This document shows, piece by piece, positions 39,512-40,978 of a stretch of 64,000 bases of DNA; position 1 is the stretch's first letter, and every line of letters begins with the position of its first letter. The stretch lies in the sequence record PQ765507; one strand, 5' to 3'. Made by a program: the position numbers and the translations under genes. Origin of the DNA: Escherichia phage 212. The notes beneath the pieces are model-generated. The model was given only the letters and a program-made list of their open reading frames with translations. It searched no databases and was not told where the DNA came from.

Positions 39512-40492
39512 ATGTTTAATATTAAAGCTTTATCCAAATTTGACCAAAACCAGGTAGTTTCTCTTTATAAAACTGGTAATTATACCCAACAGGAACTAGC
39601 AGATAATTTCGGTGTATCGGTTGACACCATTCGCCGTGTTTTGAAAAATGATAAAGAATCAAAATTAGCTAAAACCATTTCTGCATCATTGAAAGCCGAT
39701 GTCGGGGTGGCGATTAATGCTCCAGTGGCAGTAACGGTTGAAGTTCCGGTTGTTGAAGATACAATCGGCGGTAGCCGCCCGGAAATCGTATGGAATGCAT
39801 CAAGCAAATTCGTTTCCATCACCGAAGGTCGTACAGTCTGGAACGCAACAAAAGACCATAAACACTTTAATGATATTATTCAGGCATTGATTGAATCTCG
39901 TTTTGATGATGCTATTGAGTATATCTCAATCAAAGCTGCAGTACAAAAATATGTGAAAGGTGATGTACGTATCGAAGGTGGTAGTCTGTTCTATCAGGGA
40001 ATTGAACTGCGCTCTGGTCTGGTTACTCGTATCATCGATTCGATGCAAAATGGTGAAGACTTTGAATTCTATCTACCATTCCTTGAGAATCTCCTTGAGA
40101 ACCCGAGTGAAAAAGCTGTACAGCGTTTGTTTGACTTCCTGGTTGCGAACGATATCGAAATCACAGAAGACGGTCATTTCATCGCATGGAAAATGGTTCG
40201 TGCAACTTACAAAGATTGTCACTCAAACACATTCGACAACAGCCCTGGCCAATATGTTAAAATGCCACGCTCTCGTGTGAATGACAATGACGAACAGACC
40301 TGTTCAACCGGGTTACATGTTTGCTCTAAAGGCTATATCGGAAGCGGTTTTGGTCATGGTGATGGGCGCATCGTATCATGTAAAGTTCACCCGCGCGATG
40401 TTGTAAGTATCCCGGTGGATTATTCCGATAGTAAGATGAGGGTCTGTGGTTACCTGGTTCTTGACGATGTGACCGAACGTTTCAATGATTAA
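39512..40492 (+). CDS. rIIB: rIIB protein
   Basis: 326 aa; recalled match to T4 rIIB (GNYTQQELAD..GVSVDTIRRVLKN; FEFYLPFLENLLENPS). Confidence 0.95.
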   Translation: MFNIKALSKFDQNQVVSLYKTGNYTQQELADNFGVSVDTIRRVLKNDKESKLAKTISASLKADVGVAINAPVAVTVEVPVVEDTIGGSRPEIVWNASSKFVSITEGRTVWNATKDHKHFNDIIQALIESRFDDAIEYISIKAAVQKYVKGDVRIEGGSLFYQGIELRSGLVTRIIDSMQNGEDFEFYLPFLENLLENPSEKAVQRLFDFLVANDIEITEDGHFIAWKMVRATYKDCHSNTFDNSPGQYVKMPRSRVNDNDEQTCSTGLHVCSKGYIGSGFGHGDGRIVSCKVHPRDVVSIPVDYSDSKMRVCGYLVLDDVTERFND

Positions 40493-40978
40493 ACAAACAA
40501 TTGCTAAAGACGGTTCAGCTCGTGGTATTGTCCACGGGCTAGGCCACACGCCTGAATACATTGTATGGATTGGCATGAAAGCCCGGTGTTGTAATCCAAC
40601 ACATATTGGATATTCTCGATATGGCGGTCGTGTGGTATCACTGTTTGCGATGAATGGTTGCATGATTTTGAAAGATTTTATACAGATATGGGGCCACGAC
40701 CCACTGACAAACATCAACTCGACCGAACAGATAATAATAAAGGTTATTCTCCAGATAACTGCCGATGGGTTAGTCCGGGTGAGAATGCTTTAAATAAGCG
40801 CACGTATAATAACAACAAGTCTGGATTTAAAGGAGTCTCGTTTGATAAACGAGCTTTGAATAAACCATGGCGAGCCACTATTATGCGAAATAAAAAACAA
40901 ATTCAAGTCGGAGCTTTTGCAACTCCAGAAGAAGCAAATGAAGCTCGATTAAAATATATGGAAGAACATAATGTCTAA
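40485..40978 (+). pseudogene. HNH endonuclease with C-terminal AP2-like domain, interrupted by a frameshift (two track ORFs 40485..40793 and 40658..40978)
   Basis: Frame 1 gives ...HGLGHTPEYIVWIGMKARCCNP...YGGR; shifted frame continues GITVCDEW, HDFERFYTDMGPRP...LDRTDNNKGYSPDNCRW and AP2-like SGFKGVSFD...WRA.I..N.K...GAFATPEEA. Confidence 0.55.

Follow-up and report, generated by a model that had tools for sequence, protein, structure and literature searches.

A homing-endonuclease-like gene split by a two-nucleotide insertion between rIIB and denB.1 in Escherichia phage 212

Gene organization at the rIIB-denB.1 locus

The stretch of DNA analysed here, referred to as the window, comprises 64,000 nucleotides from Escherichia phage 212 (sequence record PQ765507). 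Between rIIB and a homologue of denB.1 two open reading frames (ORFs) overlap on the plus strand in different frames, at 40485-40793 (102 aa) and at 40658-40978 (106 aa, counted from a TTG codon), and on this point the initial annotation agrees with the ORF listing in both translations and coordinates (Table 1). Translation in the first frame gives MIKQ...HGLGHTPEYIVWIGMKARCCNPTHIGYSRYGGR, after which the sequence is unrelated. The second is open from 40595, following a TAA at 40592-40594, and from position 40634 it reads GITVCDEWLHDFERFYTDMGPRP...LDRTDNNKGYSPDNCRWVSPGENALNK...SGFKGVSF...EEHNV and then the stop codon.

The product of the 5' piece is 90.6% identical to residues 1-53 of MN01_00214, a protein of phage MN01 (E 6e-30), and that of the 3' piece is 91.2% identical to residues 39-163 (E 1e-76). 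Because the two pieces match the two halves of one 163-aa MN01 protein the split is no chance pattern, and window 40485-40978 is one gene lying in two reading frames. The gene is packed tightly against its neighbours. The TAA stop of rIIB at 40490-40492 overlaps the gene start (ATGATTAA) and the denB.1 ATG overlaps the endonuclease stop codon (ATAATGTCTAA). A scan for promoters and terminators around the gene gave only background-level signals.

Table 1. Features of the rIIB-denB.1 locus in the window, with the evidence for each
Feature	Position	Strand	Basis
rIIB, 326 aa, upstream neighbour	39512..40492	+	ORF; annotated rIIB in VR7, SP18 and MN01; Pfam Phage_T4_rIIB on the homologous L008 gene
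Endonuclease 5' segment, codons 1-49 (MIKQ...SRYGGR), native frame	40485..40631	+	Translation, DNA alignment
Two-nucleotide insertion site, CGT-GT-GGT	40630..40633	+	Sole gap in the alignment; isolated 2-nt insertion relative to MN01
Out-of-frame tail VVSLFAMNGC...VRVRML, 53 codons, stop at 40791-40793	40632..40793	+	ORF 40485-40793
Endonuclease 3' segment, codons 50-163 and stop (GITVCDEW...EEHNV), frame shifted by the inserted bases	40634..40978	+	Translation
Beta-beta-alpha (His-Me-finger-like) motif QLDRTDNNKGYSPDNCRWVSPGENALNK, residues 77-104	40715..40798	+	
AP2-type DNA-binding domain, residues 112-161	40820..40969	+	
denB.1 homologue, 69 aa, downstream neighbour	40971..41180	+	ORF; Pfam PF21825, E 6e-18; annotated denB.1 in VR7 and SP18

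Intact relatives

By a megablast search of the phage collection, in which the best records are 94-96% identical, the window belongs to a Gaprivervirus, a VR7/SP18-like coliphage of the T4 type. VR7 (two records), TH54, DCP80 and MN01 match the whole 901-nt query and are two bases shorter. Together with four metagenome contigs, which share the rIIB-gene-denB.1 context, these phages supply eight intact alleles in the same place, each a single ORF of 492 nt encoding 163 aa. That a single endonuclease-type gene with an AP2 tail lies downstream of rIIB, as first proposed, is therefore borne out by eight intact alleles at the same locus. In VR7, DCP80 and MN01 the gene is annotated as a single CDS between rIIB and denB.1, and its RefSeq name is 'HNH endonuclease'. 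The VR7 allele is gp292 (VR7ORF292c, YP_004063973.1), and it and the alleles of MN01, DCP80, TH54 and the metagenome-assembled DAH50965.1 (named 'homing endonuclease') occupy the same locus as the gene in the window. Nucleotide identity to the window allele is 93-96%, the lengths are equal once the two nucleotides are discounted, and the repaired protein, meaning the translation with the two extra bases removed, differs at 1-5 of 163 residues. Unlike gp292 the window allele carries a GT insertion, can encode no full-length protein and has a unique substitution, D84N.

Is the two-part arrangement perhaps the normal one? The repaired protein has 6748 homologues, mostly single proteins that cover 80-99% of it, and the close alleles are 163 aa long, which rules out that the parts are as a rule separate genes. 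The cluster that contains the intact protein at 90% identity has 20 members; of the 15 that are listed, 14 have a length of 163 aa. One member, P0012, encoded on a 29-kb Logan contig, is only 133 aa long and starts at Met31 (MKARCC...). It shares the variants G42 and T105 with the window allele and may represent another allele of this sub-lineage, damaged independently.

The gene is carried by five of 34 related phage records and absent from the other 29. In the non-carriers SP18, P479, PSD2001 and P896, rIIB ends ...GAACAATTCTAA and is followed by a 33-nt spacer, ATTAATCGGGGCTTCGGCCCCTAATGAGGCTTT (SP18 L005:958-990, with equivalents in L012, L013 and L014), and then by the denB.1 ATG. The spacer holds a GGGGCTTCGGCCCC hairpin (GGGGC-TTCG-GCCCC, with a GC stem and a TTCG loop) and a GAGG Shine-Dalgarno sequence. 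In carriers the endonuclease cassette replaces the spacer and overlapping stop and start codons are made on both sides; their rIIB is two codons longer, with a 3' end distinct from that of the non-carriers and common to the carriers. Presence or absence at a fixed intergenic site combined with distinct carrier flanks is, as judged from sequence, typical of free-standing homing endonuclease genes, and we infer that the intact protein would be an active site-specific nuclease.

Domain structure of the intact protein

The AP2-like tail noted at the outset is supported. Pfam AP2 (PF00847) matches below threshold, with 21.9-23.2 bits against a gathering cut-off of 33.3 and E values of 9e-5 to 2e-4, many homologues carry a precomputed PF00847 assignment, and the family profile matches the solved AP2 domains of WRI1 (E 1.8e-6) and TEM1 (E 3.5e-5). 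The region comprises a three-stranded sheet packed on a C-terminal helix and resembles the solved AP2 domains.

The N-terminal part is more difficult to classify. Matches are found to the PHROG families phrog_374 (E 3e-59) and phrog_953 (E 3e-44), both named 'HNH endonuclease', and the AlphaFold model (pLDDT 87.7) has a beta-beta-alpha unit formed by E77-80, E92-95 and H97-104. Pfam HNH-type models give no match at E <= 1, NCBIfam models none to the protein, and sequence searches with the N-terminal domain against the PDB return only chance-level matches. Within the family R80, Y87, N91, W94 and N103 are invariant. The conserved asparagine of the second strand corresponds to N91 and the helix Asn/His, a metal ligand, to N103, and the position of the catalytic histidine, the general base that closes the first strand, is taken by the invariant Arg80 in alignments of 31, 51 and 27 homologues. 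Since the whole family has arginine at that position the 'HNH' label initially given to the gene is only partly supported: the beta-beta-alpha topology and the conserved asparagines speak for it, the missing Pfam match and the replaced histidine against it.

The best PDB sequence match of the beta-beta-alpha sub-profile is I-HmuI (PDB 1u3e, HNH_3-type), with a non-significant E of 0.07. The family pattern N..RWVT....N..N aligns with I-HmuI residues 83-103, pairing N91 with N87, N100 with N96 and N103 with N99. By spacing, Arg80 of the window family falls at what we take to be the position of His75 in I-HmuI. A Foldseek comparison also retrieves PacI (PDB 3m7k/3ldy, His-Me finger group 20), weakly at E 1.9 and with no sequence-level match. 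His-Me fingers that lack the histidine are either inactive or use a tyrosine of the omega-loop, as in PacI (Jablonska et al., PMC5714182). Tyr87, in the omega-loop position, is invariant in the family, and one might speculate, purely by analogy, that it plays a PacI-like role. The nuclease label thus draws on the PHROG names, the beta-beta-alpha arrangement and a weak resemblance to PacI and I-HmuI. We note that the verdict on the frameshift is independent of whether the intact protein cuts DNA.

In longer members of the family, which reach 215-290 aa (P0068, P0045, P0124, P0051 and others), the N-terminal extension holds a cysteine module, CxCxC...(19 residues)...CxC; in P0068 it reads CICECGNEKVVNGAELRMGQTNSCGC. 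The spacing is that of the C33/C35/C37/C56/C58 signature of the CapR domain in CasPR (bioRxiv 10.64898/2026.02.23.707548), and this similarity hints at a link between the endonuclease-like family and CapR plus AP2 DNA-binding anti-CRISPRs.

The two-nucleotide insertion

Exactly two columns of a five-way DNA alignment of the window with four intact relatives contain gaps. At the lesion the window has GGTCGTGTGGTATC, against GGTCGGGGTATC in the phage relatives and GGTCGCGGTATC in four metagenome contigs; in codons, GGT CGT GT GGT ATC in the window stands against GGT CGG GGT ATC in the four phages and CGC GGT in the metagenome alleles. The window letters at 40629-40636 are CGTGTGGT, and the exact position of the insertion is ambiguous within GTGT. 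The initial annotation had placed a 2-nt insertion near 40630-40640 by hand and had proposed alignment to intact homologues as a check; the alignment puts the insertion at 40630-40633, and against eight intact single-frame alleles there is one 2-nt difference.

The insertion separates R49 from G50 inside the family-invariant YGGR|GI motif. G47, G48, R49 and I51 never vary in either of two sets of diverse homologues, of 31 and 51 sequences; G50 is invariant in the smaller set and conserved in at least 90% of the larger. No homopolymer surrounds the site, there being no run of five or more identical bases in 40485-40800. Among the alleles codon 49 varies synonymously at its third position, and therefore the simplest history for the window is a change of CGN to CGT followed by tandem duplication of GT. 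According to this scheme the synonymous change from CGG or CGC to CGT would have created a short GTG context, where a slip during replication probably gave the 2-bp GT tandem duplication at 40630-40633. The shift would cut the protein short after residue 49. The gene would then be a very young pseudogene, because with the truncation neither the putative nuclease motif nor the AP2 domain is translated, and would represent the degeneration step of the homing endonuclease gene cycle. Such genes usually pass through a cycle of invasion, fixation and decay.

Recent mutation, artefact or recoding

How old is the lesion, does it lie in the phage DNA, and is the gene still expressed in some form? The repaired protein differs from the phage alleles at 3-5 of 163 residues and is 162/163 identical to P0003/DAH50965.1, an intact allele found on eight contigs; the sole difference is D84N, a residue tolerated in Morganella phage MP1. 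Compared with the four phage alleles (Nei-Gojobori), pN/pS is 0.05-0.06 upstream of the lesion and 0.05-0.12 downstream. Since these values are low on both sides, nearly all of the divergence arose while purifying selection was acting on the full-length frame. No second lesion, whether stop or indel, follows in the 115 downstream codons. On these sequence comparisons the frameshift is either very recent or artefactual.

The quality of the assembly was assessed by comparing the window over its full length with 66 kb of syntenic MN01 sequence and by tblastn with about 121 MN01 proteins. Only one of these, the endonuclease, matches the window as adjacent segments in two frames, and hence the assembly is not generally error-prone. 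Of the remaining gaps relative to MN01, those with a length not divisible by three are intergenic or pair up and compensate each other within divergent stretches. Inside an annotated MN01 CDS there is just one other sizeable indel of this type, a 40-nt deletion at window ~31166 (L006:31123-31162 in MN01), at the 3' end of a small ORF downstream of dda (MN01_00198).

We consider it probable that the window holds a genuine, very young pseudogenised copy of a known endonuclease element. The main competitor is a sequencing or assembly artefact, in which the 163-aa gene of the phage is intact and the extra GT comes from an error in the consensus. Several observations suit such an error. The frameshift allele is unique: the exact ORF products of the split gene are absent from a collection of 15 billion proteins, the frameshift junction patterns have no match among IMG/VR and JGI metagenome contigs, and a window-specific 41-mer has none in IMG/VR. 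The predicted CGT-GGT precursor allele was likewise not found in IMG/VR or the JGI contigs, and a search of IMG/VR for related loci gave no allele closer than 71%. The near identity of the repaired protein to an intact allele, the absence at a pN/pS of about 0.05 of any relaxation of constraint and the complete lack of later decay fit an artefact as well as they fit a very young mutation. Nevertheless an artefact is unlikely, if by some way the most serious of the alternatives, given that no other frame-breaking indel occurs in the ~121 conserved genes of the 64-kb window, that a dinucleotide in a non-homopolymer context is atypical of homopolymer-prone platforms and that degenerate homing endonuclease genes are common (PMC2993671). 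The single-gene frame split and the sequence context thus favour as most likely a lesion that the phage itself carries over one introduced by the assembly. Decay and sequencing error, two of the three causes originally suggested, both survive, with decay favoured.

The third, programmed frameshifting, does not. In principle recoding by a -1 or +2 ribosomal frameshift, or by transcriptional slippage, could supply a low level of full-length endonuclease and so limit its expression; the frames overlap by about 200 nt (40595-40793), which would allow a fusion, and the downstream frame is perfectly preserved. Yet the first ORF contains no X_XXY_YYZ heptamer and the region no homopolymer, and the downstream segment 40636-40735 folds at -16.8 kcal/mol, a z-score of -0.76 against shuffled sequences, and so offers no stimulatory structure. 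The two-frame layout is not conserved, the eight close alleles and the 6748-member family all being single-frame, and because the lesion lies between the invariant R49 and G50 nothing but a hop of exactly +2 would bring back the native sequence. With slippery heptamer, homopolymer, downstream structure and any homologue sharing the shift all lacking, we reject programmed frameshifting, which now seems exceedingly improbable. A tolerated split, with a C-terminal fragment (beta-beta-alpha plus AP2) started at TTG 40658 or ATG 40689 and serving as a stand-alone DNA-binding protein, is extremely unlikely too. The 106-aa ORF from the TTG does hold the whole AP2 domain, and nuclease-free AP2 phage proteins can be sequence-specific repressors (CasPR, bioRxiv 10.64898/2026.02.23.707548). 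However neither start codon is preceded by a Shine-Dalgarno-like sequence, no homologue is organised in this manner and the fragment would miss the invariant residues R34, C35, G47-I51 and W57 of the N-terminal domain. Even jointly, recoding and a functional split are very unlikely, and the chance is slim indeed that the lesion is real and the gene alive, whether through rare recoding at CGU-GUG-GUA or as an internally initiated beta-beta-alpha plus AP2 DNA-binding fragment. Were that so, a homing endonuclease would here have begun to turn into an AP2 regulator that lacks a nuclease, similar to the CasPR repressors.

Comparison with known homing endonuclease genes

HNH-AP2 proteins are a recognised class of free-standing homing endonuclease in T4-related phages, relic copies of which have been tabulated (PMC2993671; PMC1524935). 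The class includes RB49 ORF040c and the copies in RB43 and JSE (Petrov et al. 2010, PMC2993671; Nolan et al. 2006, PMC1524935; Magnani et al. 2004). As in the window family, a small nuclease-type N-terminus is joined to an AP2 domain, and, like the gene described here, members sit between conserved phage genes and occur sporadically among close relatives. The window family differs in having no Pfam HNH match and arginine in place of the catalytic histidine; the likeness to RB49 and RB43 drawn here is one of domain order and genomic setting. The relic homing endonuclease genes of T-even phages (Table 5, PMC2993671) provide a second comparison. In them too a selfish gene was inactivated by a simple lesion after it had become established; in the window, by contrast, decay is at its very start, a lone lesion not yet joined by other substitutions or deletions.

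Other variable regions of the window

An intact 265-aa ORF at window 11783-12580 on the plus strand, between regA and the DNA polymerase gene 43, is missing at the same site in MN01. It combines an N-terminal ...ESHHIFPKS... motif with a C-terminal Pfam I-TevI DNA-binding domain (E 6e-8), and its N-terminus is 49% identical to that of MN01_00155, which is located elsewhere in MN01. The ORF is a second mob-like free-standing endonuclease gene, and an undamaged one. The distal tail-fibre genes (the gp37/gp38 region and part of gp36/gp35; window 49633-56788, minus strand) show about 30% protein and 69% DNA similarity to MN01, or no match, between flanks that are 90-96% identical. This divergence is the usual mosaicism of a host-range cassette.

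Consequences of the frameshift

The predicted product of the first ORF would consist of 49 native and 53 nonsense residues, without the beta-beta-alpha motif and the AP2 domain, and is presumably non-functional. As the cassette in carriers overlaps the stop and start codons of its neighbours, the frameshift in the window ends translation at 40793, 178 nt short of the denB.1 start. The carriers' denB.1 start lacks the Shine-Dalgarno sequence found in non-carrier relatives. Any translational coupling to denB.1 would presumably be lost, and a genuine lesion could have a slight polar influence on that gene.

For annotation, the two ORFs belong together as a single disrupted gene, namely a pseudogenised VR7 gp292-type endonuclease. 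The frameshift itself is ordinary, the optional endonuclease gene of Gapriverviruses being already known. If the lesion is real it provides a clean snapshot of the first step in the decay of a homing endonuclease gene, a single lesion to which drift has as yet added nothing. Perhaps more broadly interesting than the frameshift is the family to which the gene belongs, with its thousands of members, an invariant arginine in place of the catalytic histidine and a PacI-like invariant loop tyrosine.
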